From: a virus
Taxonomy: Duplodnaviria; Heunggongvirae; Uroviricota; Caudoviricetes
Reading direction: 5' to 3' (one strand)
Length of the DNA: 32,281 nucleotides
IMG/VR virus record: IMGVR_UViG_2547132488_000023
Coordinates: 1-32,281 of that record
Both the position numbers and the translations under genes were made by a program. The notes under the pieces are model-generated. The model searched no databases, was not told where the DNA came from, and saw only the letters and a program-made list of their open reading frames with translations. Positions 1,090 through 32,281 of this stretch are shown piece by piece (within the stretch, counting starts at the first letter, position 1; every line of letters starts with the position of its first letter).

Positions 1090-1389
1090 TCAGCCAGTCT
1101 TTTGGTCTGAGTGGTGCAAGGTTGTTGAGTCTTGTCCAATGTGTGCGAGAGCCGGGGCTATTTGTCCAGCTTCGGGATCTATTTCATCAAACATGAACCA
1201 GTCACGATACTTGCGAAAGCGTGGATGCTTAAACAGCTTCATACCTGCTTCCATAGGCATTTTTGATTTCCCTGATTCATATCCATGATATGTGTAGTAA
1301 TTAATTCCAATTAATTCAGCAAGTTCCTTAGTTTTAAGGCGTTCGGATTCACGAATGAGCTTTAATTTCTCGCTTTGTTCACTTGACAT
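1090..1389 (-). CDS. C: Immunity repressor C (HTH); ORF extends to 1407, but the ATG at 1389 gives a 99-aa product with a GGAG upstream
   Basis: Small HTH protein (KELAELIGINYYTYHGYESGKS) on the same strand as int and divergent from cox-like gene; position matches P2 C. Confidence 0.7.
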   Translation of the reverse strand: MSSEQSEKLKLIRESERLKTKELAELIGINYYTYHGYESGKSKMPMEAGMKLFKHPRFRKYRDWFMFDEIDPEAGQIAPALAHIGQDSTTLHHSDQKTG

Positions 1390-1482
1390 AATTTTGCTAA
1401 TCTCCAATTATATGGCTACTTGGTAATTTGTGATGCACTCAAAAAGGCTCTAGATGGCTCCAGTTGGTGAATTACAAATCTT
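1390..1482. promoter_or_regulatory. Immunity switch region between divergent repressor and cox-like genes (expected Pc/Pe promoters and operators)
   Basis: 93-bp AT-rich spacer; TATAAT hexamer on minus strand at 1407-1412; candidate TTGTGA-N17-TAGATG on plus strand; operator repeats not resolved. Confidence 0.45.
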
Positions 1483-1854
1483 ATGGAGGATAGCAAAGTG
1501 ACGACAAATGTAGAAATTTCTTGTCAAACTAGCGATGAGGCAAGTTTCGAAAACGAAGCCAAACGCAAAAGCATTCAGATTTCAGAGCGCCCATCAGATT
1601 TGCTGTCGAAAGAGGGGTTTGCTCTTTACATCGGTAAGACACCACGCGCGGTGGCTGAAATGGCTAAAGCGGGAAAGCTGCCAGCCTTCTATATGACAGA
1701 CCCATTAAAACCAAGAGGGAAAGCTGAATTATGGGTAAATCGTCGTGAGTGGGATAAGTATGCGGCACAACTAGTCGAAGAGGCTCCGACCGAGTGGCAT
1801 GACTGGAAAAATCGCATTAGTTACAGCAAATCAAGACATGGCCGTGCGGCTTAA
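1483..1854 (+). CDS. cox: Cox-like excisionase/early-switch regulator (HTH); alternative GTG start at 1498 follows a GGAGG
   Basis: Segment GFALYIGKTPRAVAEMAKAGKLPAFYMTDP resembles the P2 Cox HTH core as I recall it; first gene of the rightward early operon. Confidence 0.55.
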   Translation: MEDSKVTTNVEISCQTSDEASFENEAKRKSIQISERPSDLLSKEGFALYIGKTPRAVAEMAKAGKLPAFYMTDPLKPRGKAELWVNRREWDKYAAQLVEEAPTEWHDWKNRISYSKSRHGRAA

Positions 1855-3346: not shown

Positions 3347-3624
3347 GCATTCGTATCGAGATTGGCGAGCGTTATGTAGTCACAAATGACCGTTTTCAGT
3401 TCATTTTGCAGGAGAGAAAGACCGCTGAAACCGGGAAGAATGCCGGTAAAGAGTGGCTGGATGTTGTCGGCTATTACCCCAAATTAAACCAGCTCGTTTC
3501 CGGTCTGATCCATCACGATATTTTGAGCGGTAACGCTGTCTCTTTTGAGGCGCTGAGCTCTCAGGTTGAGCAGCTCGGTCAGCAGTGTCTGACTGCGTTT
3601 CTCTGTGCGGGGAAATCTAAATGA
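3343..3624 (+). CDS. Hypothetical early protein (P2 orf83 position)
   Basis: 93-aa ORF immediately upstream of the inserted PP-loop gene, overlapping starts/stops. Confidence 0.55.
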   Translation: MSIRIEIGERYVVTNDRFQFILQERKTAETGKNAGKEWLDVVGYYPKLNQLVSGLIHHDILSGNAVSFEALSSQVEQLGQQCLTAFLCAGKSK

Positions 3625-4628
3625 TAGTTGATACCCGCTGCCGAGCTGAAAGCTCTATCAATATTATTTCTGTTTCTGGCGGAAAGGATAGCCTTGCTCA
3701 ATGGCTTGTTGGTATTGAAAGCGGTGTGCATTTTTTGCCGGTTTTTGCAGACACCGGGCATGAGCATCCGCAGACAATGGAGTATCTCGATTATCTGGAG
3801 AACCGACTCGGGCCGGTTAAACGGGTTAAAGCTGACTTCTCCCGACAGATTGAAGGTAAGCGCAAGTTTATTGCTGAGAAATGGCCTGTTTCTCTGGTTG
3901 AAGAGTGCGGAATGTCTCCAGGGGAAGCGGCAGAGCGCATCAATTGTGCGCTGGAAATTCTCAAGCCTACTGGTATCCCATTTCTTGATTTGTGCATGTG
4001 GAAAGGGCGATTTCCTTCCACTAAAGCCAGATTTTGCACTTTTGACCTTAAACATGAGCCAGTACGTACTCAGGTCGTGTTACCTGCGCTTAATGAGTTT
4101 GATGAGGTAATTAGCTGGCAGGGGGTTCGCGCTCAGGAGTCTCCTGCGCGCGCGGGTCTGCCTGCCTGGGAAGAGGATGCGGACAATACGCCCGGGCTCC
4201 ATGTATACCGTCCTATTCTGAACTGGACGCATGAGGAGGTATTTGCATTTGCAAGACGTCATGGAATTAAACCTAATCCGTTATACCAGCAGGGATGCAG
4301 TCGTGTCGGTTGTATGCCCTGCATCCACGCCAGAAAGTCTGAATTAGCTGAAATTTTTAGTAGCTGGCCGGAAGAGGTTAAGCGTGTTGCGGAATGGGAG
4401 CGACTTGTCGCCGCATGCTCCAGACGCGGAAATTCTACTTTCTTCCCGTCAACTCATGACCCGCGTCGTGCGGAACGCCGCATTGATATTATTACTGTCG
4501 ATGCTTACGGAATTGAGTCTTATCGTGACTGGGCGATGACCACGCGTGGCGGGGCACAGTTTGATTTGCTGGCTTCGGTGAATGATAAGTCAGTTTGCAG
4601 TAGTGTCTATGCCGGTGTATGTGAATGA
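3621..4628 (+). CDS. PAPS reductase-family (PP-loop ATP pyrophosphatase, DndC/CysH-like) protein; accessory moron in the early operon
   Basis: 335 aa; N-terminal PP-loop SVSGGKDS; C-terminal cysteine cluster CSRVGCMPC; ATGA overlaps with orf83 (3621-3624) and A (4625-4628); not part of canonical P2 backbone. Confidence 0.75.
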   Translation: MIVDTRCRAESSINIISVSGGKDSLAQWLVGIESGVHFLPVFADTGHEHPQTMEYLDYLENRLGPVKRVKADFSRQIEGKRKFIAEKWPVSLVEECGMSPGEAAERINCALEILKPTGIPFLDLCMWKGRFPSTKARFCTFDLKHEPVRTQVVLPALNEFDEVISWQGVRAQESPARAGLPAWEEDADNTPGLHVYRPILNWTHEEVFAFARRHGIKPNPLYQQGCSRVGCMPCIHARKSELAEIFSSWPEEVKRVAEWERLVAACSRRGNSTFFPSTHDPRRAERRIDIITVDAYGIESYRDWAMTTRGGAQFDLLASVNDKSVCSSVYAGVCE

Positions 4629-6901
4629 GTCATTCTTTCCAGGAGCAATACACCTGCGTACCTCCGTCAGCATTTGCTGCAGGCACCGGTAAGACGTTTA
4701 CCGGTGCTTATGCATGGAACGCGCCACGCGAGGCCGTCGGGCGCGAAAGACCCCTTACACGTGACGAGATGCGTCAGGTGCAAGGTGTTTTATCCACGAT
4801 TAACCGCCTGCCTTACTTTTTGCGCTCGCTGTTTACTTCACGCTATGACTACATCCGGCGCAATAAAAGCCCGGTGCACGGGTTTTATTTTCTCACATCC
4901 ACTTTTCAGCGTCGTTTATGGCCGCGCATTGAGCGTGTGAATCAGCGCCATGAAATGAACACCGACGCGTCGTTGCTGTTTCTGGCAGAGCGTGACCATT
5001 ATGCGCGTCTGCCGGGGATGAATGACAAGGAGCTGAAAAAGTTTGCCGCCCGTATCTCATCGCAGTTTTTCATGATGTATGAGGAACTCTGCGATGCCTG
5101 GGTGGATGCGCATGGCGAAAAAGAATCGCTGTTTACGGATGAGGCGCAGGCGCATCTGTATGGTCATGTTGCTGGCGCTGCACGTGCTTTCAATATTTCC
5201 CCGCTTTACTGGAAAAAATACCGTAAAGGACAGATGACCACGAGGCAGGCATATTCTGCCATTGCCCGTCTGTTTAACGATGAGTGGTGGACTCATCAGC
5301 TTAAAGGCCAGCGTATGCGCTGGCATGAAGCGTTACTGATAGCTGTCGGGGAGGTCAATAAAGACCGTTCTCCTTATGCCAGTAAACATGCCATTCGTGA
5401 TGTGCGTGCGCGCCGCCAGGCAAATCTGGAATTTCTTAAATCGTGTGACCTTGAAAACAGGGAAACCGGCGAGCGCATCGACCTTATCAGTAAGGTGATG
5501 GGCAGTATTTCTAATCCTGAAATTCGCCGGATGGAGCTGATGAACACCATTGCCGGTATTGAGCGTTACGCCGCCGCAGAGGGTGATGTGGGGATGTTTA
5601 TCACGCTGACCGCGCCGTCAAAGTATCACCCGACACGTCAGGTCGGAAAAGGCGAAAGTAAAACCGTTCAGCTTAATCACGGCTGGAACGATGAGGCATT
5701 TAATCCAAAGGATGCGCAGCGTTATCTCTGCCGTATCTGGAGCCTGATGCGCACGGCATTCAAGGATAATGATTTACAGGTCTACGGTTTGCGTGTCGTC
5801 GAGCCACACCACGACGGAACGCCGCACTGGCATATGATGCTTTTTTGTAATCCATGCCAGCGTAACCAGATTATCGAAATCATGCGTCGCTATGCGCTCA
5901 AAGAGGATAGTGACGAAAGAGGCGCTGCGCGAAACCGTTTTCAGGCAAAGCACCTTAACCGGGGCGGTGCTGCGGGATATATCGCGAAATACATCTCAAA
6001 AAACATCGACGGCTATGCACTGGATGGTCAGCTCGATAACGATACTGGCAGGCCGCTGAAAGATACTGCTGCGGCTGTTACCGCATGGGCGTCAACGTGG
6101 CGCATTCCGCAATTTAAAACGGTTGGCCTGCCGACAATGGGGGCTTACCGTGAACTACGCAAATTGCCTCACGGCGTCAGCATTGCTGATGAGTTTGACG
6201 AACGCGTCGAGGCTGCACGCGCCGCCGCAGACAGTGGTGATTTTGCGTTGTATATCAGCGCGCAGGGTGGGGCAAATGTCCCGCGCGATTGTCAGACTGT
6301 CAGGGTCGCCCGTAGCCCGTCGGATGACGTTAACGAGTATGAGGAAGAGGTCGAGAGAGTGGTCGGCATTTACGCGCCGCATCTCGGCGCGCGTCATATT
6401 CATATCACCAGAACGACGGACTGGCGCATTGTTCCGAAAGTTCCGGTCGTTGAGCCTTTGACTTTAAAAAGCGGCATCGCCGCGCCTCGGAGTCCTGTCA
6501 ATAACTGTGGAAAGCTCACCGGCGGTAATACTTCGTTACCGGTTCCCACGCCTTCTGAGCACGCCGCAGCAGTGCTAAATCTGGTTGATGACGGTGTTAT
6601 CAAATGGAATGAACCGGAGGTCGTGAGGGCGCTCAGGGGCGCATTAAAATACGACCTGAGAACGCCAAATCGTCAGCAAAGAAACGGAAGCCCGTTAAAA
6701 CCACATGAAATTGCACCATCGGCCAGACTGACCCGGTCGGAACGATTGCAAATCACCCGTATCCGCGTTGACCTTGCTCAGAACGGTATCAGGCCGCAGC
6801 GATGGGAGCTTGAGGCGCTGGCGCGTGGGGCAACTGTAAATTACGACGGGAGAAGCTTCAGTTATCCTGTTATATGTGATTGGAGAGCGTATGAATTATG
6901 A
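4625..6901 (+). CDS. A: Rolling-circle replication initiator A (HUH endonuclease; ori expected inside the gene)
   Basis: 758 aa; HUH motif HHDGTPHWHMM and tandem catalytic tyrosines in GYIAKYISKNIDGY; size and position match P2 gpA. Confidence 0.9.
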   Translation: MSHSFQEQYTCVPPSAFAAGTGKTFTGAYAWNAPREAVGRERPLTRDEMRQVQGVLSTINRLPYFLRSLFTSRYDYIRRNKSPVHGFYFLTSTFQRRLWPRIERVNQRHEMNTDASLLFLAERDHYARLPGMNDKELKKFAARISSQFFMMYEELCDAWVDAHGEKESLFTDEAQAHLYGHVAGAARAFNISPLYWKKYRKGQMTTRQAYSAIARLFNDEWWTHQLKGQRMRWHEALLIAVGEVNKDRSPYASKHAIRDVRARRQANLEFLKSCDLENRETGERIDLISKVMGSISNPEIRRMELMNTIAGIERYAAAEGDVGMFITLTAPSKYHPTRQVGKGESKTVQLNHGWNDEAFNPKDAQRYLCRIWSLMRTAFKDNDLQVYGLRVVEPHHDGTPHWHMMLFCNPCQRNQIIEIMRRYALKEDSDERGAARNRFQAKHLNRGGAAGYIAKYISKNIDGYALDGQLDNDTGRPLKDTAAAVTAWASTWRIPQFKTVGLPTMGAYRELRKLPHGVSIADEFDERVEAARAAADSGDFALYISAQGGANVPRDCQTVRVARSPSDDVNEYEEEVERVVGIYAPHLGARHIHITRTTDWRIVPKVPVVEPLTLKSGIAAPRSPVNNCGKLTGGNTSLPVPTPSEHAAAVLNLVDDGVIKWNEPEVVRALRGALKYDLRTPNRQQRNGSPLKPHEIAPSARLTRSERLQITRIRVDLAQNGIRPQRWELEALARGATVNYDGRSFSYPVICDWRAYEL

Positions 6902-6955
6902 GATTGTGATAAAAAGTAAATAATTAATATAATGCAATTGCTTGACTGTTTTAAA

Positions 6956-6986
6956 AGGGACAACGTAGTTGTGAACTATATTGTCC
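6956..6986. terminator. Hairpin (GGGACAA / TTGTCCC stem) between convergent A and putative endonuclease genes; possible bidirectional terminator
   Basis: 7-bp perfect inverted repeat 6956-6962 / 6980-6986 in the AT-rich 93-bp spacer between convergent stop codons. Confidence 0.4.
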
Positions 6987-6994
6987 CGGGAGTA

Positions 6995-8050
6995 TTAATT
7001 TTTAAATATGGATTGTATGTATTCTATAGTGCTATCTTTAGCTCTGATGTCTTTTAAAGTGTTATTTATGAAATCTATTATTCTGTCATTACTTAATAGT
7101 GGCGATAACGCATAACATGTTGTTGTGAATGTCATGACGTCACTAAAGCTTAGTGAAACACCTTTTGTCGCAGCGTTCTCAATCGCAATAGACTCATCAA
7201 TATCTAAGTTTGTTGCTCTTGGCCCTTTAAGGAAGATAACTTTTGAAATCCCGGATGCAGATGCTTTTGAAACGGCGTGATTAACATCTTGATAATTAAA
7301 TGGTTTGTCTTTCACTTCTATAGAAAGGAAAACTATATCATCATGATATACATCTATGTCCAGTATCTCTTTTGAGGAGCTACCGGCCTGATTGACGGGA
7401 TGTGCTTTTATTATCCATCCTCTTTGTTCACCTAATAAGTGTAGCGAAATTGCGGCAGCAATCGCGCATGTTTCTCCATCACAAGGATGAGATATAATAT
7501 TATAAATAATCTTATGGAAATCAAAATTAATTGAGTTCGGCGTTATAACTCTATTGGTTCGCTGTAGGGTAAAATATAATGCAATAACAAGCATTTCATA
7601 AGCTAAGGTTTGGGTTGTTGCTGCATGTAATATATCAATTGAAAGTTGTTGTAAAACCTTATCATTTCCTCTGCGCACAGGGTTATCAGAGGAGTGGAGC
7701 ATGTAACGAGCTGGTTTATTTAGAAATGGCTCATTTGATGCGCCTAACTTACCCTCTAAAAATGGGCCTTCTACTTTGCCTACTATTACCGAATGACATA
7801 AACTTCTTGCATCATAGGCTCCGTCTACGGGGGCATTAGCTTGTAAAGCCAGAGGGTTTACTCTAGGGTCTGTTGCTTTTGCAAGTAAACCAGTAATAAG
7901 TATATATCTGTATGTAAGGTGGGTGCCTAAAATTACATTTTGAATGGAGACCCATTGATTATTTGTTTTGTAATCAGTTAATTTTTTTGCATCGTTGATT
8001 GCATTTATAATTACATTATAGGCTTGCTCATGATTTACTAATACTTTCAT
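6995..8050 (-). CDS. Putative type II restriction endonuclease (family not recognised) of an R-M cassette
   Basis: 351 aa; start overlaps the last codons of the upstream HTH controller gene; divergent from a C5-MTase; candidate PD-(D/E)xK-like segment ILDIDVYHDDIVFLSIEVKDK; markedly AT-rich. Confidence 0.5.
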   Translation of the reverse strand: MKVLVNHEQAYNVIINAINDAKKLTDYKTNNQWVSIQNVILGTHLTYRYILITGLLAKATDPRVNPLALQANAPVDGAYDARSLCHSVIVGKVEGPFLEGKLGASNEPFLNKPARYMLHSSDNPVRRGNDKVLQQLSIDILHAATTQTLAYEMLVIALYFTLQRTNRVITPNSINFDFHKIIYNIISHPCDGETCAIAAAISLHLLGEQRGWIIKAHPVNQAGSSSKEILDIDVYHDDIVFLSIEVKDKPFNYQDVNHAVSKASASGISKVIFLKGPRATNLDIDESIAIENAATKGVSLSFSDVMTFTTTCYALSPLLSNDRIIDFINNTLKDIRAKDSTIEYIQSIFKN

Positions 8051-8342
8051 AGGTGTCCTTTAGTAAGATATCCATTGGTAGACCTAATCGGCTTGCAACC
8101 ACCTCTAATAATTCAAATAGTTCTAAAGCATCTAATCGCCTTTCAAAGCTTTCGATTTTAGATATATCTGATTGTGATAATCCTAGAAAAATGGCCAATT
8201 CTGACTGCGAAAGAGAAGCTTCTTTGCGTAGTTTGGTGAGAAGCTGGACTAGGCACCTGTATCTATGATCATGTATAGTTGGTTGTCGTTTTGCCATGTG
8301 GTTTAGAAGGTGATTGATTGTGTGTCGATCCTTACCTATCAT
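8028..8342 (-). CDS. Controller (C-protein-like) XRE-family HTH regulator of the R-M cassette; possible alternative start at 8297 (89 aa)
   Basis: 104-aa ORF with HTH SLSQSELAIFLGLSQSDISKIESFERR; immediately upstream of and overlapping the putative endonuclease gene, divergent from the MTase, as in PvuII-type C-controlled systems. Confidence 0.65.
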   Translation of the reverse strand: MIGKDRHTINHLLNHMAKRQPTIHDHRYRCLVQLLTKLRKEASLSQSELAIFLGLSQSDISKIESFERRLDALELFELLEVVASRLGLPMDILLKDTYESISKS

Positions 8343-9511
8343 TGGTTTTATTCCAAAATCGAATAATTGGTGCTAAAGAAGTGAACAAAATTTCAGCGGT
8401 GAGCTTATTTACTGGGGCAGGAGGGATGGATGTCGGTTTCTCTAATGCCGGGTTCCGAACAGTTTGGGCCAATGATATAGATAAGGATGCATGTGATACA
8501 TTTAAGCTTAATCATGAATCACCTGTTTTTTGTGGTGATATTGATGAGATGCTAAGTGAATTGTCTGGGCTGAAAAATATAGGTTGTGTTTTTGGTGGGC
8601 CTCCATGCCAAGGATTTTCTGTGGCAGGGAAAATGGACGCTCATGATCCACGTAGTAAGCTGGTTATGTCATTCATGCGGGCGGTGGATATAATTCAACC
8701 AGAATGCTTTGTTATGGAGAATGTTAAGGCTTTAGCACAGTTGTCCAAATTTGAACCAGTTAGGTGTGAACTGTTTAAGATGGCTGAAAAGTCAGGCTAT
8801 CGTTCAGCCTTGCTGGTGCTGAATTCTAAAGATTTTGGCGTTCCTCAGAATAGGGAACGTATGTTTTTTATAGGGTTTCGTTCCGAAAATGATGTGAAAC
8901 AAGTTGAGGTGGCGATAAAAAAATACCAATATCTTTCGCCCACAGTTGGTGAGATTATTCGGCCTTTAGGGCGAGCGGGTAATCCAAACAATTCAAGAGT
9001 CTGTAATGCAAGGATTACAAATGCTGCTAAGCCAGTATTACGGAAGTCACCTTACGCGGGAATGATGTTTAACGGGCAGGGAAGACCAATTAACCCGAAT
9101 GGGTATGCTTCAACTATAGCTGCTTCTATGGGGGGGAATAGGACACCAATTATTGATGAAGAACACCTTTATGATGGCTCAACAAGTTATGTTGAGACTT
9201 ATCATAATCATCTAATGAATGGTGGTGAGCCAAAAGATATGCACGATGTACCTAGTCGTTTACGTCGACTAACGATAGATGAGGCTCTTTTGATTCAAAC
9301 ATTCCCGAGTAATTATGTCTTTGTGGGGAAAAATTCGTCAATTTGGCGTCAGATAGGGAATGCTGTGCCTTGTAAATTGGCGCAGGCTGTTGCTGCAGGG
9401 GTTTTGGATGTCCTTACTGGAAAAACTATTAATGTTCAAAAGAGTCAAACAGAGTTGAGTTTGAATTCGAAAAACGGATCACATTTTCAAACCGATGGAT
9501 GCAGAATTTAA
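8318..9511 (+). CDS. DNA (cytosine-5) methyltransferase (Dcm-like); true start may be the in-frame GTG near 8381
   Basis: Motif I FTGAGGMDVGF, motif IV GGPPCQGFSVAGK, motif VI ENVKAL, motif VIII QNRERMFFIGF, motif X GNAVP; variable region between VIII and IX. Confidence 0.9.
   Translation: MCVDPYLSLVLFQNRIIGAKEVNKISAVSLFTGAGGMDVGFSNAGFRTVWANDIDKDACDTFKLNHESPVFCGDIDEMLSELSGLKNIGCVFGGPPCQGFSVAGKMDAHDPRSKLVMSFMRAVDIIQPECFVMENVKALAQLSKFEPVRCELFKMAEKSGYRSALLVLNSKDFGVPQNRERMFFIGFRSENDVKQVEVAIKKYQYLSPTVGEIIRPLGRAGNPNNSRVCNARITNAAKPVLRKSPYAGMMFNGQGRPINPNGYASTIAASMGGNRTPIIDEEHLYDGSTSYVETYHNHLMNGGEPKDMHDVPSRLRRLTIDEALLIQTFPSNYVFVGKNSSIWRQIGNAVPCKLAQAVAAGVLDVLTGKTINVQKSQTELSLNSKNGSHFQTDGCRI
8343..8380. 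promoter_or_regulatory. Divergent control region of the R-M cassette with palindrome TTATTC-N7-GAATAA (8348-8366); candidate C-box/operator
   Basis: Perfect 6-bp inverted repeat with 7-bp spacer between the divergent C-R and M genes; tandem GATT repeats just upstream at about 8310-8325. Confidence 0.35.
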
Positions 9512-9628
9512 CATTGCTGCATGAGTTTGCATCTTGAAATCATAAGTTGTACTGCTTGGCTTGACCAGAATTGATGTGGGTAAGAAGTGGTTATGCACCC
9601 GCATTAAAACCGACCCATGAAGCGGGCG

Positions 9629-9647
9629 GGCGAGGCGGGGAAAGCAC
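9629..9647. other. cos: cos site: 19-nt P2-type cohesive end GGCGAGGCGGGGAAAGCAC
   Basis: Exact 19-mer I recall as the P2/186 cohesive end, in the expected place between the old-locus equivalent and the portal gene. Confidence 0.7.
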
Positions 9648-9789
9648 TGCGCGCTGGCGGTGGTGCTGATTTTATTTTTTCAGCGTCTGAGCGCGTCGTG
9701 ATGGCGTTTAGTCGGCCTGCCGGGGCGTTGGTGTGTCTGCGGGGTGTTTTGTACAGTGGCGAACGTGTGAGGGCGTGATGACGGGGTGT

Positions 9790-9811
9790 AAAAAAGCCGC
9801 CCGCAGGCGGC
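9790..9811 (-). terminator. Rho-independent terminator downstream of portal gene Q
   Basis: GCCGCC-cgca-GGCGGC hairpin (9796-9811) followed on the minus strand by a U6 run (plus-strand AAAAAA 9790-9795), immediately after the Q stop. Confidence 0.55.
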
Positions 9812-9816
9812 GATGT

Positions 9817-10851
9817 TCAGCCGTTGTCAGTGTCCAGTGAGTAGTTTTTAAATCGGATGACCTCCTGACCGAGCCAGCCGTTTATCTCGCGGATCCTGTC
9901 CTGTAACGGGATAAGCTCATTGCGGACAAAGACCTTTGCTACTTTCTCAATATCGCCCAGCGACCCGACGTTCTCCGGTTTGCCGCCCATCAACTGAAAG
10001 GGGATGCGGTGCGCGTCCAGCAGGTCTGCGGCACTGGCTTTTTTGATATTAAAAAAATCGTCCTTCGTCGCCACTTCACTGAGCGGGATAATTTTAATGC
10101 CGTCGGCTTTTCCCTGCGGGGCATAGAGAAACAGGTTTTTAAAGTTGTTGCGGCCTTTCGATTTCACCATGTTTTCGCGAAGCATTTCGATATCGTTGCG
10201 ATCCTGCACGGCATCGGTGACGTACATGATGTATCCGGCATGTGCGCCGTTTTCGTAATACTTGCGGCGGAACAGCGTGGCCGACTCATTCAGCCAGGCA
10301 GAGTTAAGGGCGCTGAGATATTCCGGCAGGCCGTACAGCTCCTGATTAATATCCGGCTCCAGCAGGTGAAACACGGAGCCGGGCGCGAAAGGTGTCGGCT
10401 CGTTGAAGGACGGCACCCACCAGTAAACATCCTCTTCCACGCCACGGCGGGTATATTTTGCCGGTGAGGTTTCCAGTCTGATGACCTTACCGGTGGTGCT
10501 GTAACGCTTTTCCAGAAACGCATTACCGAACACCAGAAAATCCAGCACAAAGCGGCTGAAATCCTGCTGGGAAAGGCACGGGTGCGGGATAAACGTTGAA
10601 GCCAGAATATTACGTTTGACGTAAATCGGTGAGCTGTGATGCACGGCAGCACGCAGGCTTTTTGCCAGACCGGTAAAGCTGACCGGTGGCTCATACCATC
10701 TGCCGTTACTGATGCACTCGACGTAATCCAGAATGTCACGGCGGTCGAGTACCGGCACCGGCTCGCCAAAGGTGAATGCCTCCATTTTCGGGGCGCTGGC
10801 GGTCATTGTTTTTGCCGCAGGTCGCGGTGTTTTCCCTTTTTTCTTGCTCAT
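9817..10851 (-). CDS. Q: Portal protein (P2 gpQ)
   Basis: 344 aa, same length as P2 Q; first gene next to cos, transcribed leftward with P. Confidence 0.9.
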   Translation of the reverse strand: MSKKKGKTPRPAAKTMTASAPKMEAFTFGEPVPVLDRRDILDYVECISNGRWYEPPVSFTGLAKSLRAAVHHSSPIYVKRNILASTFIPHPCLSQQDFSRFVLDFLVFGNAFLEKRYSTTGKVIRLETSPAKYTRRGVEEDVYWWVPSFNEPTPFAPGSVFHLLEPDINQELYGLPEYLSALNSAWLNESATLFRRKYYENGAHAGYIMYVTDAVQDRNDIEMLRENMVKSKGRNNFKNLFLYAPQGKADGIKIIPLSEVATKDDFFNIKKASAADLLDAHRIPFQLMGGKPENVGSLGDIEKVAKVFVRNELIPLQDRIREINGWLGQEVIRFKNYSLDTDNG

Positions 10852-14786: not shown

Positions 14787-15530
14787 ATGACGAGTCCCGC
14801 ACAGCGCCACATGATGCGGGTCTCGGCAGCGATGACCGCGCAGCGGGAAGCCGCCCCGCTGCGACATGCAACTGTCTATGAGCAGATGCTGGTCAAGCTG
14901 GCCGCAGACCAGCGCACACTGAAAGCGATTTATTCAAAAGAGCTGAAGGCCGCGAAAAAACGCGAACTGCTGCCGTTCTGGTTGCCGTGGGTGAACGGCG
15001 TGCTGGAGCAGGGCAAAGGTGCACAGGATGACATTCTGATGACGGTCATGCTGTGGCGTCTGGATACCGGCGATATTGCCGGTGCGCTGGAGATTGCCCG
15101 TTATACCCTGAAGTACGGTCTGACCATGCCGGGTAAACACCGCCGCCCCCCGCCGTACATGTTCACCGAGGAGGTGGCGCTCGCGGCCATGCGCGCTCAC
15201 GCTGCCGGTGAGTCTGTGGATACCCGCCTGCTGACGGAGACCCTTGAACTGACCGCCACGGCTGACATGCCTGATGAAGTGCGCGCAAAGCTGCACAAAA
15301 TCACCGGTCTGTTTCTGCGTGACGCTGGTGATGCCGCAGGTGCGCTGGCGCACCTGCAACGTGCGACACAGCTCGACTGTCAGGCAGGCGTCAAAAAAGA
15401 GATTGAACGACTGGAGCGGGAACTGAAACCGAAGCCGGAGCCACAGCCAAAAGCGGCCACCCGCGCCCCGCGTAAGACCCGGAGTGCGACACCGGCAAAA
15501 CGTGGACGCCCGAAAAAGAAAGCCAGTTAA
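14787..15530 (+). CDS. M: Terminase small (endonuclease) subunit (P2 gpM)
   Basis: 247 aa; basic lysine/arginine-rich C-terminus; position after N. Confidence 0.85.
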   Translation: MTSPAQRHMMRVSAAMTAQREAAPLRHATVYEQMLVKLAADQRTLKAIYSKELKAAKKRELLPFWLPWVNGVLEQGKGAQDDILMTVMLWRLDTGDIAGALEIARYTLKYGLTMPGKHRRPPPYMFTEEVALAAMRAHAAGESVDTRLLTETLELTATADMPDEVRAKLHKITGLFLRDAGDAAGALAHLQRATQLDCQAGVKKEIERLERELKPKPEPQPKAATRAPRKTRSATPAKRGRPKKKAS

Positions 15531-15629
15531 CAACCGAATGCGCCCCGCGCCAGGGCGGCACGCCGGTCAGTGAGGGTGAATCACCTGACACTGCACCAGC
15601 GTCCACCGCCCGACTTTTCAGAGGTAGTC

Positions 15630-16139
15630 ATGATGACGCTGATTATTCCGCGAAAGGAGGCTCCCGTGTCCGGTGAGGGTACGGTGGTCATCCCGCAACC
15701 GGCAGGCGACGAGCCGGTGATTAAAAACACGTTCTTTTTTCCTGATATCGACCCGAAGCGCGTCCGGGAACGTATGCGCCTTGAGCAGACCGTCGCCCCC
15801 GCCCGTCTGCGTGAGGCCATCAAGTCAGGCATGGCGGAAACAAATGCGGAGCTGTACGAGTACCGCGAACAGAAAATTGCCGCCGGTTTTACGCGTCTGG
15901 CGGACGTTCCGGCAGACGATATCGACGGTGAAAGCATCAAAGTTTTTTACTACGAGCGCGCCGTGTGTGCGATGGCGACCGCGTCGCTTTATGAGCGTTA
16001 TCGCGGCGTGGATGCCAGTGCGAAAGGCGACAAGAAGGCCGACAGCATTGACAGCACCATTGATGAGCTGTGGCGGGATATGCGCTGGGCAGTGGCGCGC
16101 ATCCAGGACAAGCCGCGCTGCATCGTGAGTCAAATCTGA
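15630..16139 (+). CDS. L: Head completion/stabilisation protein (P2 gpL)
   Basis: 169 aa from MMTLIIPRKE with GAGG at 15621-15624; ORF extends upstream to 15570. Confidence 0.8.
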   Translation: MMTLIIPRKEAPVSGEGTVVIPQPAGDEPVIKNTFFFPDIDPKRVRERMRLEQTVAPARLREAIKSGMAETNAELYEYREQKIAAGFTRLADVPADDIDGESIKVFYYERAVCAMATASLYERYRGVDASAKGDKKADSIDSTIDELWRDMRWAVARIQDKPRCIVSQI

Positions 16140-16342
16140 TGAAGACCTTTGCGCTACAGGGCGACACGCTCGACGCCATTTGTGTCCGGTATTACGGGCG
16201 CACTGAGGGCGTGGTCGGGGCCGTGCTCGCCGCAAATCCGGGACTGGCTGAACTGGGTGTGGTGCTGCCACACGGCACCGCCGTCGAACTGCCCGACGTT
16301 CAGACCGCGCCCGTGGCTGAAACTGTCAATCTGTGGGAGTAA
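16139..16342 (+). CDS. X: Tail protein X (small LysM-like protein)
   Basis: 67 aa from MKTFALQGDTLDAICVRYYG; start overlaps L stop (ATGA). Confidence 0.7.
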   Translation: MKTFALQGDTLDAICVRYYGRTEGVVGAVLAANPGLAELGVVLPHGTAVELPDVQTAPVAETVNLWE

Positions 16343-16345
16343 CGC

Positions 16346-16627
16346 ATGACAGCAGAAGAAAAAAGCGTCCTGTCGCTTTTCATGATTGGGGTGCTGATTG
16401 TTGTCGGCAAGGTGCTTGCCGGTGGTGAACCCATTACCCCGCGTCTGTTTATCGGGCGCATGTTGCTCGGTGGTTTTGTCTCGATGGTTGCCGGTGTTGT
16501 TCTGGTGCAGTTCCCTGACCTGTCACTGCCTGCGGTGTGCGGCATCGGCTCCATGCTGGGTATCGCCGGTTATCAGGTGATTGAGATTGCCATTCAGCGC
16601 CGTTTTAAGGGCAGGAGGAAACAGTAA
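16346..16627 (+). CDS. Y: Holin (P2 gpY)
   Basis: 93 aa with hydrophobic membrane segments; first gene of lysis cassette. Confidence 0.8.
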   Translation: MTAEEKSVLSLFMIGVLIVVGKVLAGGEPITPRLFIGRMLLGGFVSMVAGVVLVQFPDLSLPAVCGIGSMLGIAGYQVIEIAIQRRFKGRRKQ

Positions 16628-17124
16628 TGCCGGTAATTAACACGCATCAGAATATCGCCGCCTTTCTCGACATGCTGGCCGTGTCCGAAGGGACGGCGAA
16701 TCATCCGCTGACGAAAAACCGGGGCTATGACGTGATAGTCACCGGACTGGACGGGAAGCCGGAAATCTTCACCGACTACAGTGACCACCCGTTCGCACAT
16801 GGCCGACCGGCGAAGGTGTTTAACCGTCGCGGTGAAAAATCCACGGCCTCCGGTCGTTATCAGCAGCTTTACCTGTTCTGGCCGCATTACCGCAAACAGC
16901 TTGCCCTGCCGGATTTCAGTCCGTTGTCACAGGACAGACTTGCCATTCAGTTGATCCGCGAACGCGGTGCACTGGATGACATCCGGGCGGGACGCATTGA
17001 GCGCGCCATTTCACGCTGTCGCAATATCTGGGCGTCCCTGCCGGGTGCCGGTTACGGTCAGCGTGAGCATTCACTGGAAAAACTGGTCACCGTCTGGCGT
17101 ACCGCTGGCGGCGTACCGGCTTAA
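16627..17124 (+). CDS. K: Endolysin (P2 gpK, lysozyme-like)
   Basis: 165 aa following holin; matches P2 K size. Confidence 0.85.
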   Translation: MPVINTHQNIAAFLDMLAVSEGTANHPLTKNRGYDVIVTGLDGKPEIFTDYSDHPFAHGRPAKVFNRRGEKSTASGRYQQLYLFWPHYRKQLALPDFSPLSQDRLAIQLIRERGALDDIRAGRIERAISRCRNIWASLPGAGYGQREHSLEKLVTVWRTAGGVPA

Positions 17125-17138
17125 ACGGAGTAAACACC

Positions 17139-17564
17139 ATGAAGAAATTATCCCTTTCACTGATGCTGAACGTGTCGCTGGCGCTGATGCTGGCACTGTC
17201 CCTGATTTACCCGCAGAGCGTGGCCGTCAGTTTTGTCGCCACCTGGGCGATTCTGGCGACGGTTATCTGTGTGGTTGCCGGTGGTGTCGGCGTGTATGCC
17301 ACTGAGTATGTACTGGAACGCTACGGACGGGAGCTGCCGCCGGAATCGCTGGCCGTGAAGATTGTCACGTCGCTGTTTTTGCAGCCGGTGCCGTGGCGCA
17401 GACGGGCAGTAGCTCTGGTGGTGATGGTGGCGACATTTATCTCGCTGGTCGCTGCCGGGTGGATTTTTACCGCGCTGATTTATCTCGTGGCATCGGTGTT
17501 CTTCCGGCTGATACGTACGGCCTGCCGTCAGCGTTTTGAGGGGCGGGAACCATGTCAAGGCTGA
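17139..17564 (+). CDS. lysA: Lysis timing membrane protein LysA
   Basis: 141 aa, multiple hydrophobic helices; position after K. Confidence 0.7.
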   Translation: MKKLSLSLMLNVSLALMLALSLIYPQSVAVSFVATWAILATVICVVAGGVGVYATEYVLERYGRELPPESLAVKIVTSLFLQPVPWRRRAVALVVMVATFISLVAAGWIFTALIYLVASVFFRLIRTACRQRFEGREPCQG

Positions 17565-17977
17565 TGATTGTGCTGGTCGTGTTGTTATCGCTGGCGGTGA
17601 CGGGTCTGTTTCTGGCGAAGCATAAAAACGCCAGCCTGCGCACCTCACTGGACAGGGCAAACAACGTAGCCAGCGAGCAGCAGGCGACCATCACCATGCT
17701 GAAAAATCAGTTTCATGTTGCGCTCACAAGGGCAGACAAAAACGAGCTGGCGCAGGTGGCACTGCGTCAGGAACTGGAAAACGCCGCGAAGCGTGAAGCT
17801 GAGCGCGAGAAAACCATCACGAGGTTACTGAATGAAAACGAAGATTTTCGCCGCTGGTACGGTGCTGACCTGCCTGATGCTGTGCGCCGGTTGCACCAGC
17901 GCCCGGCCTGCACCGACGCCAGTGATTGTTGCCAACGCCTGCCCGAAAGTGAGCCTTTGCCCGATGCCGGGCAGTGA
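17552..17977 (+). CDS. lysB: Inner-membrane spanin LysB (Rz-like)
   Basis: 141 aa with N-terminal TM helix then charged coiled-coil region. Confidence 0.7.
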   Translation: MSRLMIVLVVLLSLAVTGLFLAKHKNASLRTSLDRANNVASEQQATITMLKNQFHVALTRADKNELAQVALRQELENAAKREAEREKTITRLLNENEDFRRWYGADLPDAVRRLHQRPACTDASDCCQRLPESEPLPDAGQ

Positions 17978-18122
17978 CCCGCAGACGAACGGCGATTTAA
18001 GTGCTGATATCCGGCAGCTTGAGAACGCGCTGGCACGCTGTGCCAGCCAGGTAAAAATGATTAAACACTGTCAGGACGAAAACGATGCTCAAACCCGACA
18101 GCCTGCGCAGGGCGCTGACTGA
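17832..18122 (+). CDS. lysC: Outer-membrane lipoprotein spanin LysC (Rz1-like), embedded in +1 frame within the end of lysB
   Basis: 96 aa; signal peptide with lipobox LCAGC; proline-rich; overlaps lysB 3' end. Confidence 0.6.
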   Translation: MKTKIFAAGTVLTCLMLCAGCTSARPAPTPVIVANACPKVSLCPMPGSDPQTNGDLSADIRQLENALARCASQVKMIKHCQDENDAQTRQPAQGAD

Positions 18123-18552
18123 TGCCGTCACGGTGCTGAAAACTAACCCCGATATGCTGCGGATATTCGTGGATAACGGGAGTATTGCCTCCACGCTGGC
18201 GGCGTCGTTGTCATTCGAAAAGCGTTACACGCTCAATGTTATTGTGACCGACTTTACCGGTGATTTTGACCTGCTCATCGTGCCGGTGCTGGCGTGGCTG
18301 CGGGAAAATCAGCCCGACATCATGACCACCGACGAAGGCCAGAAAAAGGGCTTCACGTTTTATGCGGACATCAACAATGACAGCAGCTTTGATATCAGCA
18401 TCAGCCTGATGCTGACCGAGCGCACGCTGGTCAGTGAGGTTGACGGCGCGCTGCATGTGAAGAATATCCCGGAACCACCGCCGCCGGAGCCGGTCACCCG
18501 CCCGATGGAGCTTTATATCAATGGTGAACTGGTGAGTAAGTGGGATGAATGA
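18085..18552 (+). CDS. R: Tail completion protein R
   Basis: 155 aa in conserved position. Confidence 0.75.
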   Translation: MLKPDSLRRALTDAVTVLKTNPDMLRIFVDNGSIASTLAASLSFEKRYTLNVIVTDFTGDFDLLIVPVLAWLRENQPDIMTTDEGQKKGFTFYADINNDSSFDISISLMLTERTLVSEVDGALHVKNIPEPPPPEPVTRPMELYINGELVSKWDE

Positions 18553-18997
18553 GTTTAAGCGTTTTGAAGACCGGCTGACCGGACTGATTGAGTCGCTGTC
18601 ACCGTCAGGGCGTCGGCGACTGAGTGCCGAACTGGCGAAACGTCTGCGGCAGAGTCAGCAGCGTCGGGTGATGGCTCAGAAAGCCCCGGACGGCACACCC
18701 TACGCGCCACGCCAGCAGCAGAGCGCCAGAAAAAAGACCGGTCGCGTTAAGCGAAAAATGTTTGCGAAACTTATCACCAGTCGTTTTTTGCATATCCGCG
18801 CCAGCCCTGAACAGGCATCAATGGAGTTTTACGGCGGGAAGTCACCGAAAATAGCCAGTGTGCATCAGTTCGGTCTGTCGGAAGAAACCCGGAAAGACGG
18901 TAAGAAAATTGATTATCCGGCGCGTCCTCTGCTCGGCTTTACCGGTGAGGATGTGCAGATGATTGAAGAGATTATCCTGGCTCACCTCGACCGTTAG
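18545..18997 (+). CDS. S: Tail completion protein S
   Basis: 150 aa in conserved position. Confidence 0.75.
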   Translation: MNEFKRFEDRLTGLIESLSPSGRRRLSAELAKRLRQSQQRRVMAQKAPDGTPYAPRQQQSARKKTGRVKRKMFAKLITSRFLHIRASPEQASMEFYGGKSPKIASVHQFGLSEETRKDGKKIDYPARPLLGFTGEDVQMIEEIILAHLDR

Positions 18998-24411: not shown

Positions 24412-25167
24412 CTATTCCTTGGCCTCTTTATTTTTCTCGCCATCGCCAATGTAAAGAAGATAATCGTTTAAGGATATCCTTCCGGAGGGGCCGGTCCATG
24501 TTATCCATCCGTTCTCACGAAGATTAAATAATGCTTCCATGAACTCATTATCGTTAAAAGAATGATCCTCTGAGAACAGAATGTTCATTTTTCTCAATAG
24601 TTCTTCCACTTTAATCTTTTCATATCGCCTTATCAGACTTAGTGCTTTACGACGCATTAAGATTGTAGGTACTGCTTGTGAACGAATGGTTTTTTGTATT
24701 CCACTATCAAGAACTTTTTTGATCTTACTCTCTAACTCTTTGATTTTAGTTTCATTATCTCCATTGGACTTAAGCTTTTCATCAACGATGCAAATAATTT
24801 CCTGACTAATGCTGTTCTTGAGGTTGTTTATTTTTTCTTCATTGTTGAGAATCTCATCAGAGCTTCCTGCATGGGGTTTTTTCCATATGTGCTGACGCAT
24901 ATCCGTTACCGTATCTCTCATCATAGAGAATGTATCTGAATATAACTTGTCAAATATTTTTTCCAGTCGTTCGACACTTGCCTGGATGTCTTTTGCTGCT
25001 TTAGTTGTCTCTTTAGAAGCCTCATTCGACATTTTATAAAAAACAAAAGAAAGCCAAATAGCCCCAATGGCGAGTACTAATGAGGCTATTGTGGCAATAA
25101 AACCTATTATTGTTATTGCTGTATCTAATGTACCTGCTGCATCTGTGACTACTGTTTCTGCTGCCAT
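24412..25167 (-). CDS. Membrane-anchored protein of unknown function in the Z/fun-equivalent accessory slot
   Basis: 251 aa; GAGG 5-6 nt upstream of ATG; N-terminal TM helix TAITIIGFIATIASLVLAIGAIWLSFVFY; lysine/glutamate-rich helical middle; C-terminal region with aromatic GWITWTGP motif; AT-rich; antisense to late genes. Confidence 0.7.
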   Translation of the reverse strand: MAAETVVTDAAGTLDTAITIIGFIATIASLVLAIGAIWLSFVFYKMSNEASKETTKAAKDIQASVERLEKIFDKLYSDTFSMMRDTVTDMRQHIWKKPHAGSSDEILNNEEKINNLKNSISQEIICIVDEKLKSNGDNETKIKELESKIKKVLDSGIQKTIRSQAVPTILMRRKALSLIRRYEKIKVEELLRKMNILFSEDHSFNDNEFMEALFNLRENGWITWTGPSGRISLNDYLLYIGDGEKNKEAKE

Positions 25168-31981: not shown

Positions 31982-32062
31982 TGTGTTTTATTTATCTGTT
32001 TGTTTTATAAGGATAAATTAACTAAAATGGCACCATCAACAAAACCGGAAGAGGTGCTCGCG

Positions 32063-32281
32063 ATGTTTCATTGTCCTTTATGCCAGCATGCCGCACATGC
32101 GCGTACAAGCCGCTATATCACTGACACGACAAAAGAGCGTTATCACCAGTGTCAGAACGTGAATTGCAGCGCCACGTTTATCACTTATGAGTCGGTACAG
32201 CGATACATCGTGAAGCCGGGAGAAGTCCACGCCGTAAGGCCGCACCCGTTGCCGTCAGGGCAGCAAATTATGTGGATGTAA
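32063..32281 (+). CDS. ogr: Late gene transcriptional activator Ogr (zinc finger)
   Basis: 72 aa MFHCPLCQHAAHARTSRYITDTTKERYHQCQNVNCSATF with CxxC-N22-CxxxxC pattern; GGAAGAGG upstream; looks identical to P2 Ogr as I recall it; stop is the last codon of the window. Confidence 0.88.
   Translation: MFHCPLCQHAAHARTSRYITDTTKERYHQCQNVNCSATFITYESVQRYIVKPGEVHAVRPHPLPSGQQIMWM

Follow-up and report, generated by a model that had tools for sequence, protein, structure and literature searches.

The variable segment next to the cos site of a complete P2-type prophage carries, with a probability of about 0.93, the type II restriction-modification (R-M) system EcoT38I as cargo of the cos-proximal hotspot between the genes for gpA and gpQ. 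The prophage was analyzed as a window of 32,281 nucleotides, i.e., the whole stretch of DNA under study, and the coordinates of the features are compiled in Table 1. The cassette consists of the genes for a nuclease (R), a complete m5C methyltransferase (M) and an HTH controller (C) with a conserved palindromic operator upstream, which bears out the C-controlled type II R-M cassette proposed in a first-pass annotation. The case of EcoT38I thereby confirms that an R-M cassette is recognizable from the raw sequence alone, and it is a classic example of an R-M system which a temperate phage carries in a cos-proximal defence hotspot.

The cassette is not new, because the presence of EcoT38I on a P2 prophage has been published and its gene arrangement has been catalogued for the P2 hotspot. 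The title of Kita, Kawakami and Tanaka 2003 (J Bacteriol 185:2296) already places the system on P2 prophages, and Table S5A of Rousset et al. 2022 (PMC9122126), the study that defined the gpA-gpQ locus as a P2 defence hotspot, contains the combination HTH + RE_SacI + DNA_methylase at this position. The accession WP_134874246 in that table is the one which RefSeq gives for the R protein of one of our genome matches. Crystal structures exist for the EcoT38I endonuclease and controller, and nothing new follows from the cassette itself; the small additions of our analysis are refined gene starts and a comparative definition of the operator.

Table 1. Features of the EcoT38I cassette and its flanks (window coordinates).
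Feature	Position	Strand	Basis
P2 replication endonuclease gpA, flanking the hotspot on the left	4625..6901	+	PF05840 E 3.5e-123; RefSeq annotation
Variable AT-rich cargo segment with the whole EcoT38I R-M cassette	6902..9628	.	between gpA stop 6901 and cos 9629
ecoT38IR, R.EcoT38I type II restriction endonuclease, 351 aa, SacI family	6995..8050	-	PF09566; identity to PDB 7E8R/7EDB
ecoT38IC, controller protein, XRE-type HTH, 89 aa (most likely start)	8028..8297	-	HTH_3 E 1.8e-6; weak matches to PADLOC Control_protein; identity to 2EF8
Candidate M promoter, TTGATT, 17 nt, TATCAT	8314..8342	+	consensus scan, 9/12 matches; predicted
Putative C/R promoter, -35-like TTGGAA 8356-8351, 17-nt spacer, weak -10 AAGGAT 8333-8328	8328..8356	-	conserved geometry across loci
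C-box operator, perfect 19-bp palindrome TTATTC-GATTTTG-GAATAA	8348..8366	.	inverted repeat; family consensus ATATGCGATTTTGGCATAT
ecoT38IM, m5C DNA methyltransferase, 376 aa (most likely start, GTG)	8381..9511	+	PF00145; TIGR00675; identity to Q83VT0; closest solved structure M.HaeIII
P2 cos cohesive-end 19-mer GGCGAGGCGGGGAAAGCAC, right hotspot boundary	9629..9647	+	invariant when aligned to the two termini of P2 NC_001895
P2 portal protein gpQ, flanking the hotspot on the right	9817..10851	-	PF04860; annotation

Genomic slot and identity of the cassette

Three AT-rich genes had been annotated in the slot equivalent to tin and old, and they are present at 6995-8050 (minus strand), 8028-8342 (minus strand) and 8318-9511 (plus strand). 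As judged from the flanking gpA and gpQ genes, the cos site and the alignment with P2, the cassette occupies the space from the gpA stop codon to the adjoining cos site, where P2 carries orf91, tin and old. The segment therefore fits the cargo of the P2 gpA-gpQ hotspot, with variable genes adjoining cos in a prophage of the P2 type. A GC count gave values of 36–41% for the island at 7001-9500 and of 48–57% for the adjacent intervals. The cassette shares with tin and old the identical genomic slot and the presumed benefit for the lysogen of excluding other phages, whereas there is no relationship between the proteins or their mechanisms; Old and Tin are described as phage-exclusion (abortive-type) functions rather than as R-M. 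Among 5426 complete E. coli genomes, 20 contain the cassette in full length at ≥99% identity, and no phage record matched at this threshold and length. The cassette is retained in one RefSeq genome whose adjoining portal gene is interrupted by an IS66 element.

The 351-aa product of the R gene, predicted as the nuclease of the system, is identical in 350 of its 351 residues to the "EcoT38I restriction endonuclease" of PDB entries 7E8R and 7EDB and differs from the crystallized enzyme by the single conservative substitution I289L. Its assignment as a type II restriction endonuclease is likewise supported by PF09566, which covers the protein with an E-value of 1.9e-76 (258 bits vs. a cut-off of 19.3, model positions 4–276 of 276), and by the PADLOC model REase_II, which is matched end to end. 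The residues D231, D233, E245 and K247 of the PD-(D/E)XK catalytic domain, which are invariant in the family, are all intact, and the AF2 model of the protein reached a pLDDT of 91.5. Translation of R starts at ATG 8050, behind an AAGGA Shine-Dalgarno sequence at 8060-8056 inside the end of the C gene, and codon 15 is AUA, matching the published rare-codon position of EcoT38I (Table 3, PMC6456624). The DNA-bound crystal structure is that of the EcoT38I endonuclease, which is near-identical to the R protein described here.

The divergent gene, annotated earlier as Dcm-like, was confirmed to code for a complete m5C methyltransferase containing every canonical motif: PF00145 is matched almost over its entire length (E 1e-66, positions 2–320 of 324), TIGR00675 gives an E-value of 3.4e-59, and the motifs FTGAGG, GPPCQGFS, ENV, QNRER and GNAVP were read directly in the translation. 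The protein is identical at 361 of 363 positions to P0036 (UniRef Q83VT0, filed under Peduovirus P2), the differences being R174Q and A177V. Because the stop codon of the 363-aa deposit is lost in the present allele, its C-terminus is 13 residues longer.

The controller completes the resemblance, since residues 21–104 of the 104-aa HTH reading frame match the 84-residue chain of PDB 2EF8 at 100% identity. This PDB entry is named only "Putative transcription factor". The cassette therefore resembles EcoT38I of E. coli TH38 in all three proteins and in the location between the A and Q genes, and the rare-codon fingerprint of R and M is reproduced exactly; the differences are the substitutions in R and M mentioned above and the C-terminal extension of M. 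With the refined gene starts (see below), the R and M genes are separated by 330 nt (8051-8380), and the same intergenic distance is reportedly given in the Kita 2003 abstract. The EcoT38I system is said to have been cloned and characterized in that year. While the title of the 2003 paper refers to "defective P2 prophages", the prophage described here contains a complete gene set from int to ogr.

Weak sub-threshold matches of the HTH protein to the antitoxin models of HipB, MqsA and Y4mF would fit a toxin-antitoxin or other non-R-M pair of the HTH and 351-aa genes with an unrelated methylase adjacent, which the earlier annotation had named as the finding that would speak against an R-M system. 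All of these matches fall far below the curated cut-offs, however, with the best one at 25.9 bits vs. 71.65. Moreover, the partner gene codes for a named, crystallized and DNA-bound restriction endonuclease, and an orthologous methyltransferase accompanies R across phyla. We rejected this reading as refuted by the identity of the EcoT38I endonuclease and the linkage to the methyltransferase, and it retains practically no probability. None of the contrary findings listed in the earlier annotation was encountered in our analysis.

Gene starts, operator and promoters

The coordinates of C and M used previously were those of the longest open reading frames and therefore needed refining. In these, C extends from ATG 8342 to 8028 on the minus strand (104 aa), M from TTG 8318 to 9511 on the plus strand (397 aa), and both genes overlap head-to-head by 25 nt. 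RefSeq annotates the same starts, and the long forms of both proteins are found in the databases, where the 89-aa and 104-aa forms of C are equally abundant, however (at least 1000 contigs each). The 15 additional N-terminal residues of the 104-aa form are not conserved among the homologues, and ATG 8342 is located within the spacer of the inferred C/R promoter, only 5 nt from the operator. When 24 C homologues are aligned, their conserved start falls about 8 residues ahead of a SIHD motif, which corresponds to ATG 8297. In the case of M, the P2-filed deposit begins at the position equivalent to GTG 8381, and codons 12 and 15 are GGG when read from there. As listed for EcoT38I in Table 3 of PMC6456624, the rare codons are AUA at codon 15 of R and GGG at codons 12 and 15 of M, and these positions fit only the start at GTG 8381, which supports it over TTG 8318. 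The sequence comparisons make ATG 8297 the most likely start of C (89 aa) and GTG 8381 that of M (376 aa), and we regard the longer versions as improbable. On this basis, the C and M genes no longer overlap, but are separated by 83 bp. The overlap of the HTH gene with the start of the 351-aa gene stands as previously annotated and amounts to 23 nt, with the C stop codon TGA at 8030-8028, while the earlier 5' ends of C and M are replaced by 8297 and 8381.

A C-box is present upstream of C in the locus of every C-bearing relative, scoring 25–34 bits in 22 of 23 cases. In C-less loci, the median score is 6.4 bits and no C-box was found, except for two truncated loci in which the presence of C is not assessable. 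Within the window, the copy at 8348-8366 is the sole strong match (25.5 bits, with the next best at 7.4 bits). Conservation of the box extends from enterobacteria to cyanobacteria, with arms that vary symmetrically between the lineages (GC...GC vs. TC...GA).

The -35-like hexamer TTGGAA of the putative C/R promoter lies inside the right arm of the C-box, and transcription is predicted to start near 8321. A generic sigma-70 consensus scan called no minus-strand promoter for C/R, and the inferred promoter is weak by consensus; its geometry (TTGGCA, 16–18 nt, TCAAnAT) is kept in the related loci. The spacing of 27 nt between box and ATG in cyanobacterial loci is compatible with leaderless C mRNAs, as they have been described for C genes (PMC2632904). 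For the candidate M promoter, the predicted transcription start lies around 8349 and thus borders on the C-box. Because the box overlaps both the -35-like hexamer of C/R and the predicted start of M transcription, the arrangement suggests that one operator at 8348-8366 activates C/R and represses M. 

The abstract of Kita 2003 is said to state that C.EcoT38I activates R and represses M, and the binding of C to its operator and the activation of C/R transcription are reportedly described there for EcoT38I as well. The motif class of the C.EcoT38I operator is not given in the main text of Sorokin et al. In this model, the operator would act at once as the -35 region of C/R and the +1 region of M; that such a logic has never been dissected experimentally appears possible, but unlikely, to us. 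If the model is correct, the EcoT38I/SacI family would represent a minimal form of the C-protein switch, with just one operator.

Comparison with related systems and proposed regulation

Orthologues of the methyltransferase adjoin those of R in about 70 loci from many phyla. Among 77 related loci in which R was found, 68 contain an orthologous methyltransferase within about 4 kb of R, mostly directly adjacent, and in 8 of the remaining 9 the sequence breaks off no more than about 400 nt upstream of R. Of 80 related loci, about 24 show the arrangement with C and R divergent from M. The cassette resembles the SacI family (PF09566) in the full-length model match, the PD-(D/E)XK core and the orthologous m5C methyltransferase partner, whereas most members of the family lack C and show gene orders that are tandem, convergent, or divergent without C. 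SacI recognizes GAGCT^C, of which the EcoT38I site GRGCY^C would be a degenerate superset.

The PvuII, AhdI and Esp1396I systems share with EcoT38I a small HTH controller gene upstream of and overlapping R and a divergent M gene, and probably also an operator placed over the -35 region of the C/R promoter and a delay of R by autoactivation of C. They differ in that the single 19-bp operator of EcoT38I is also positioned to repress M. PvuII-like motifs of types 1–4 are double boxes of 35 bp, with GTG at the centre and outer trinucleotides that are complementary (PMC2632904), while only one 19-bp palindrome is conserved at the EcoT38I-type loci, with neither a second box nor a central GTG. The comparison with PvuII drawn in the first-pass annotation thus holds for the gene order, but not for the type of operator, which rather resembles the palindromic single-operator classes of the EcoRV-like and EcoO109I-like systems. 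EcoO109I on P4-like satellites is also similar in being a C-controlled type II R-M cassette, with genes for an HTH protein, a restriction endonuclease and a DNA_methylase, next to cos in a hotspot of the P2/P4 family, and both cassette types appear in one supplementary catalogue (Rousset et al. 2022, PMC9122126). They differ in the endonuclease (RE_EcoO109I vs. RE_SacI) and in the carrier (P4 satellite vs. P2 helper phage).

From these features, a regulatory scheme may be proposed. M would methylate host and prophage DNA at the recognition sequence, which R would cut in unmethylated incoming DNA; this site is reportedly GRGCY^C with the inner cytosine methylated (REBASE, Kita 2003 abstract). 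A C dimer bound to the operator may touch RNA polymerase at TTGGAA and switch on the C-R transcript by positive feedback, with R being translated from its own AAGGA ribosome-binding site within the end of C. The same dimer would occupy the M promoter from +1 to +18 and lower the expression of M. Because the M promoter would initially be unrepressed and R would depend on C, M is expected to be made first after entry into a naive cell, and R only once C has accumulated. Owing to this delay, the phage would be able to install the system while its new host survives. Unmodified superinfecting phages would be restricted in the lysogen, and the system may also penalize loss of the prophage.

Defence, addiction and integrity of the system

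A working R-M system may also have its main selective role as an addiction module, with post-segregational killing upon loss of the P2 prophage and only a secondary function in defence. Type II R-M systems are known to be capable of post-segregational killing (cf. Naito et al. 1995). The retention of EcoT38I on "defective P2 prophages", as worded in the title of Kita et al. 2003, and of the cassette beside the IS66-disrupted portal gene in one RefSeq genome would also fit such a role. On the other hand, the gpA-gpQ slot is a hotspot of many bona fide anti-phage systems, and its cargo has been shown to protect lysogens (PMC9122126). Both roles can coexist, and the sequence does not discriminate between them; we consider addiction as the main role possible, but unlikely.

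The functional R-M reading also has to be weighed against a decayed system, with an inactive R and with M serving as an orphan or anti-restriction enzyme. Methylases without a cognate nuclease are frequent in phages. In addition, one gene is missing in some rows of the table of Rousset et al. 2022, and the M gene is split in one genome copy. In the present prophage, however, R is of full length with I289L as the sole substitution and intact family-invariant residues, C and its operator are intact, and M keeps all motifs, which renders decay very improbable, and we rejected the reading of M as an orphan methylase. The split M gene belongs to the assembly of E. coli FORC_082, which also contains a frameshifted portal gene, suggesting a sequencing error. 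We therefore judged it a probable assembly error and rejected this locus as a case of R without M.

Finally, the window contains 3 GRGCYC sites, compared to 27.5 ± 5.9 expected ones. P2, which carries tin and old, and phage 11W contain none, although both lack the cassette, and many other 6-bp palindromes are also missing from the window, P2 and phage 11W. We therefore rejected the depletion as evidence for the specificity of the cassette; it is a family-wide counter-restriction trait.

Identity and position of the restriction-modification cassette

The first-pass annotation had read three AT-rich genes as a type II restriction-modification cassette under the control of a C protein, and all three ORFs were found exactly where it had placed them (see table). 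The genes code for an endonuclease (R), an HTH controller (C) and an m5C methyltransferase (M) and lie in an island of 36–41% GC over 7001–9500 versus 48–57% in the adjoining windows. This island is flanked by the gene for the replication endonuclease gpA (4625–6901; PF05840, E 3.5e-123) and the gpQ portal gene (9817–10851).

Features of the cassette in the window (longest ORFs for C and M)
Feature	Positions	Strand	Description
R ORF	6995-8050	-	351 aa
HTH (C) longest ORF	8028-8342	-	104 aa
MTase (M) longest ORF	8318-9511	+	397 aa
Operator TTATTC-GATTTTG-GAATAA	8348-8366		perfect inverted repeat

R belongs to the SacI family of restriction endonucleases and is full length (PF09566, 258 bits, E 1.9e-76); it also matched the 351-position REase_II model of PADLOC from end to end with 832 bits. 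Its AlphaFold model, calculated with 42 homologues as input, was confident (pLDDT 91.5), and the top PDB matches were 7EDB, "EcoT38I restriction endonuclease complexed with DNA", and the apo enzyme 7E8R. Direct sequence comparison with these entries revealed 350 of 351 identical residues, I289L being the sole change. Residues D231, D233, E245 and K247 show the spacing typical of the PD-(D/E)XK superfamily and are invariant across the family alignment. M aligned nearly end to end with PF00145 (E 1e-66), also matched TIGR00675 and contains all classical m5C motifs, as had been claimed for a Dcm-like enzyme. It is identical at 361 of 363 positions to the 363-aa UniRef entry Q83VT0, whose taxon is given as Peduovirus P2. 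The allele in the window is without the stop codon of the deposited protein and therefore 13 residues longer (KNGSHFQTDGCRI; 9470–9511); both the long and the short C-terminal alleles are common in databases. C gave an HTH_3 match and weak matches to the "Control_protein" models of PADLOC, and its long ORF matches PDB 2EF8, an 84-residue chain named "putative transcription factor", with 100% identity over residues 21–104. The reading as a restriction-modification cassette is supported: R is nearly identical to the EcoT38I endonuclease and M is a complete m5C enzyme.

A 2003 paper by Kita, Kawakami and Tanaka (J Bacteriol 185:2296) placed the EcoT38I restriction-modification genes on a P2 prophage, as its title states. 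If M starts at GTG 8381, R and M are separated by 330 nt (8051–8380), which agrees with the distance reportedly given in the abstract of that paper. Given the same start, the window also has both rare-codon features listed for EcoT38I (PMC6456624 Table 3): codon 15 of the endonuclease gene is AUA, and in the methylase gene codons 12 and 15 are both GGG. This pattern serves as an independent fingerprint of the system. Anti-phage systems concentrate in the cos-proximal locus between gpA and gpQ, a hotspot described with 1,650 arrangements in 18,150 loci (Rousset et al. 2022, PMC9122126). Table S5A of that catalogue contains the arrangement HTH + RE_SacI + DNA_methylase and includes WP_134874246, the RefSeq accession for R in the identical locus of E. 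coli Res13-Lact-PEB08-01. As judged by sequence, the cassette is the published EcoT38I system at a location that has also been published; it is already known, with structures solved for two of its three proteins and an entry in a systematic hotspot catalogue.

The window extends from int (1–996) to ogr (32000–32281) and is, apart from the cassette, about 96% identical to Peduovirus genomes, which indicates a complete P2-type prophage gene set. Aligning 9480–9830 with both ends of P2 (NC_001895) located the 19-nt cohesive end GGCGAGGCGGGGAAAGCAC at 9629–9647; therefore, the cassette fills the slot completely, from the stop of gpA up to cos. This slot carries orf91, tin and old in P2 itself, which bears out the proposed tin/old-equivalent position. 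Of 5426 complete E. coli genomes, 20 carried the full cassette at ≥99% identity, on the chromosome every time, and no deposited phage genome did so at that threshold; Salmonella enterica also has identical proteins.

Gene starts, operator and proposed control

The HTH gene had been described as overlapping the start of R, and its end, including the stop codon, indeed covers the first 23 nt of R, whose ATG is preceded by an AAGGA ribosome-binding site. In an alignment of C with 23 homologues, the conserved part starts some eight residues ahead of the SIHD motif (MAKRQPTIHD), and the N-terminal extensions that the longest ORFs carry bear no relation to each other, which points to ATG 8297 as the likely start of an 89-aa protein. 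The location of ATG 8342 inside the spacer of the predicted C/R promoter (see below) further argues against the 104-aa form; both forms are found in at least 1000 contigs each in databases. The likely M start at GTG 8381 coincides exactly with that of the deposit filed under P2. With these starts, C (8028–8297) and M (8381–9511) do not overlap and enclose an 83-bp control region, and the refined starts represent a modest addition of this analysis.

One conserved element, ATATGCGATTTTGGCATAT, is present upstream of the C genes. A weight matrix derived from these sites scored 25–34 bits in 22 of the 23 loci from relatives that have C, in each case a short way upstream of this gene, and gave a single match of 25.5 bits in the window, the next best reaching 7.4 bits. 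The median of loci without C was 6.4 bits, and the two high scorers among them are truncated such that C is not assessable there. The arms vary symmetrically between lineages (TATGC...GCATA vs. TATTC...GAATA), as expected of a site read by a dimer. While PvuII-like motifs are 35-bp double boxes with a central GTG (PMC2632904), the operator in the window is a single palindrome, so the likeness to PvuII drawn earlier holds for the gene order and not for the operator type. Because a site has been predicted for C.EcoT38I as well as for other controllers (PMC2632904), the operator itself is probably not new; its comparative definition as a single palindrome placed to control both promoters is a modest addition. 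The Xanthomonas cucurbitae locus has a C-like HTH ORF (1276–1566, minus strand) on the far side of M and, close upstream of this ORF at about 1612, a variant palindrome with unchanged spacer and symmetrically altered arms (ATAGTCCATTTTGGACTAT); the two may be a diverged operator-controller pair.

Within the right arm of the operator, TTGGAA (8356–8351; TTGGCA in most relatives) is predicted to be a good −35 hexamer facing C, with a weak −10, AAGGAT (8333–8328), 17 nt downstream. Cyanobacterial loci have the M start codon immediately beside the operator and 26–28 nt between the operator end and the C ATG; transcription of C would start on the ATG, which fits the leaderless C mRNAs described (PMC2632904). 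The corresponding distance of 50 nt in the window implies a predicted C leader of about 24 nt. A consensus scan of the plus strand yielded a candidate M promoter (TTGATT, 17 nt, TATCAT; 8314–8342) whose predicted start, near 8349, falls on the first base pairs of the operator. With the C/R −35 in the operator and the M transcription start at its edge, the two promoters are predicted to lie back to back and to overlap. Bound to the operator, a C dimer would sit at the −35 of the C/R promoter and could activate it, and would cover M promoter positions +1 to +18 and could repress M. By the logic usual for the establishment of such systems, M would be expressed first in a naive cell and R only once C had built up by positive feedback; translation of R would use the gene's own ribosome-binding site, inside the end of C. 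These regulatory and establishment steps are what the anatomy most likely implies. The proposed dual action agrees with the 2003 abstract, in which C reportedly regulates R positively and M negatively.

Linkage of R and M in the SacI family

To see whether R and M are more than chance neighbours, we searched the ORFs of 80 loci with SacI-family endonucleases, one genome per species, with R, M and C of the window. R was found in 77 loci, and 68 of these had an M orthologue (E 1e-110 to 1e-195) no more than about 4 kb away, mostly right beside it; in eight of the nine exceptions the sequence breaks off less than about 400 nt upstream of R. The loci come from enterobacteria, cyanobacteria, Bacteroidota, Firmicutes and one archaeon. 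Four gene orders were observed: C-R divergent from M as in the window (about 24 loci), divergent without C, tandem with M before R, and convergent. C and the operator are confined to the divergent order; C is therefore an optional accessory found only with this layout.

In E. coli FORC_082 (NZ_CP026641.1), a frameshift splits M (locus positions 1717–2909) and R is annotated as intact; an assembly error is the likeliest cause because that prophage's portal gene, too, is annotated as frameshifted. Several P2 hotspot rows read 'HTH + RE_SacI' without DNA_methylase, e.g., NZ_NTIH01000052 (PMC9122126 Table S5A, supplementary file 6), where M is presumably unannotated or a pseudogene. R without M, if a genuine case, would be surprising.

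Biological role and other cargo

In a lysogen, R would cut entering DNA that lacks EcoT38I methylation. Such a defence role would fit the function of the slot; protection of lysogens has been demonstrated for its cargo, old/tin among others (PMC9122126). The sequence is equally compatible with an addiction module stabilising the prophage, and the two roles may coexist. In strain Res13-Lact-PEB08-01, the IS66-family element ISCro1 is inserted in the portal gene adjoining an intact EcoT38I cassette (locus positions 14916–18657), leaving a defective prophage that retains the restriction-modification system.

GRGCYC, the EcoT38I site, occurs three times in the window (3555, 4194 and 24215) versus 27.5 ± 5.9 times in shuffles. 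We rejected this depletion as evidence for the cassette, since P2 (NC_001895) and phage 11W, both cassette-less, have no such site and many further 6-bp palindromes (AGCGCT, CAGCTG, CGGCCG, GGCGCC and others) are likewise missing from all three genomes; it reflects a palindrome avoidance general to P2-like phages and is uninformative on the cassette. The sites in the window fall only in or near accessory segments, two of the three in or beside a gene for a 335-aa protein with a PAPS-reductase domain (3621–4628, plus strand; PF01507, E 1.4e-35; phrog_424). This gene lies directly upstream of gene A, overlapping its start, and is missing from reference P2. Another AT-rich region, with 35% GC, lies between the genes for tail-fibre assembly (G) and sheath (FI) and contains a 251-aa ORF (24412–25167, minus strand) without significant Pfam or PADLOC matches, assigned to phrog_36054 (unknown function) alone. 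Its N-terminus has a hydrophobic stretch that resembles a transmembrane helix by eye, and its position corresponds to the fun(Z) slot of P2, making it uncharacterised cargo of another variable P2 locus.
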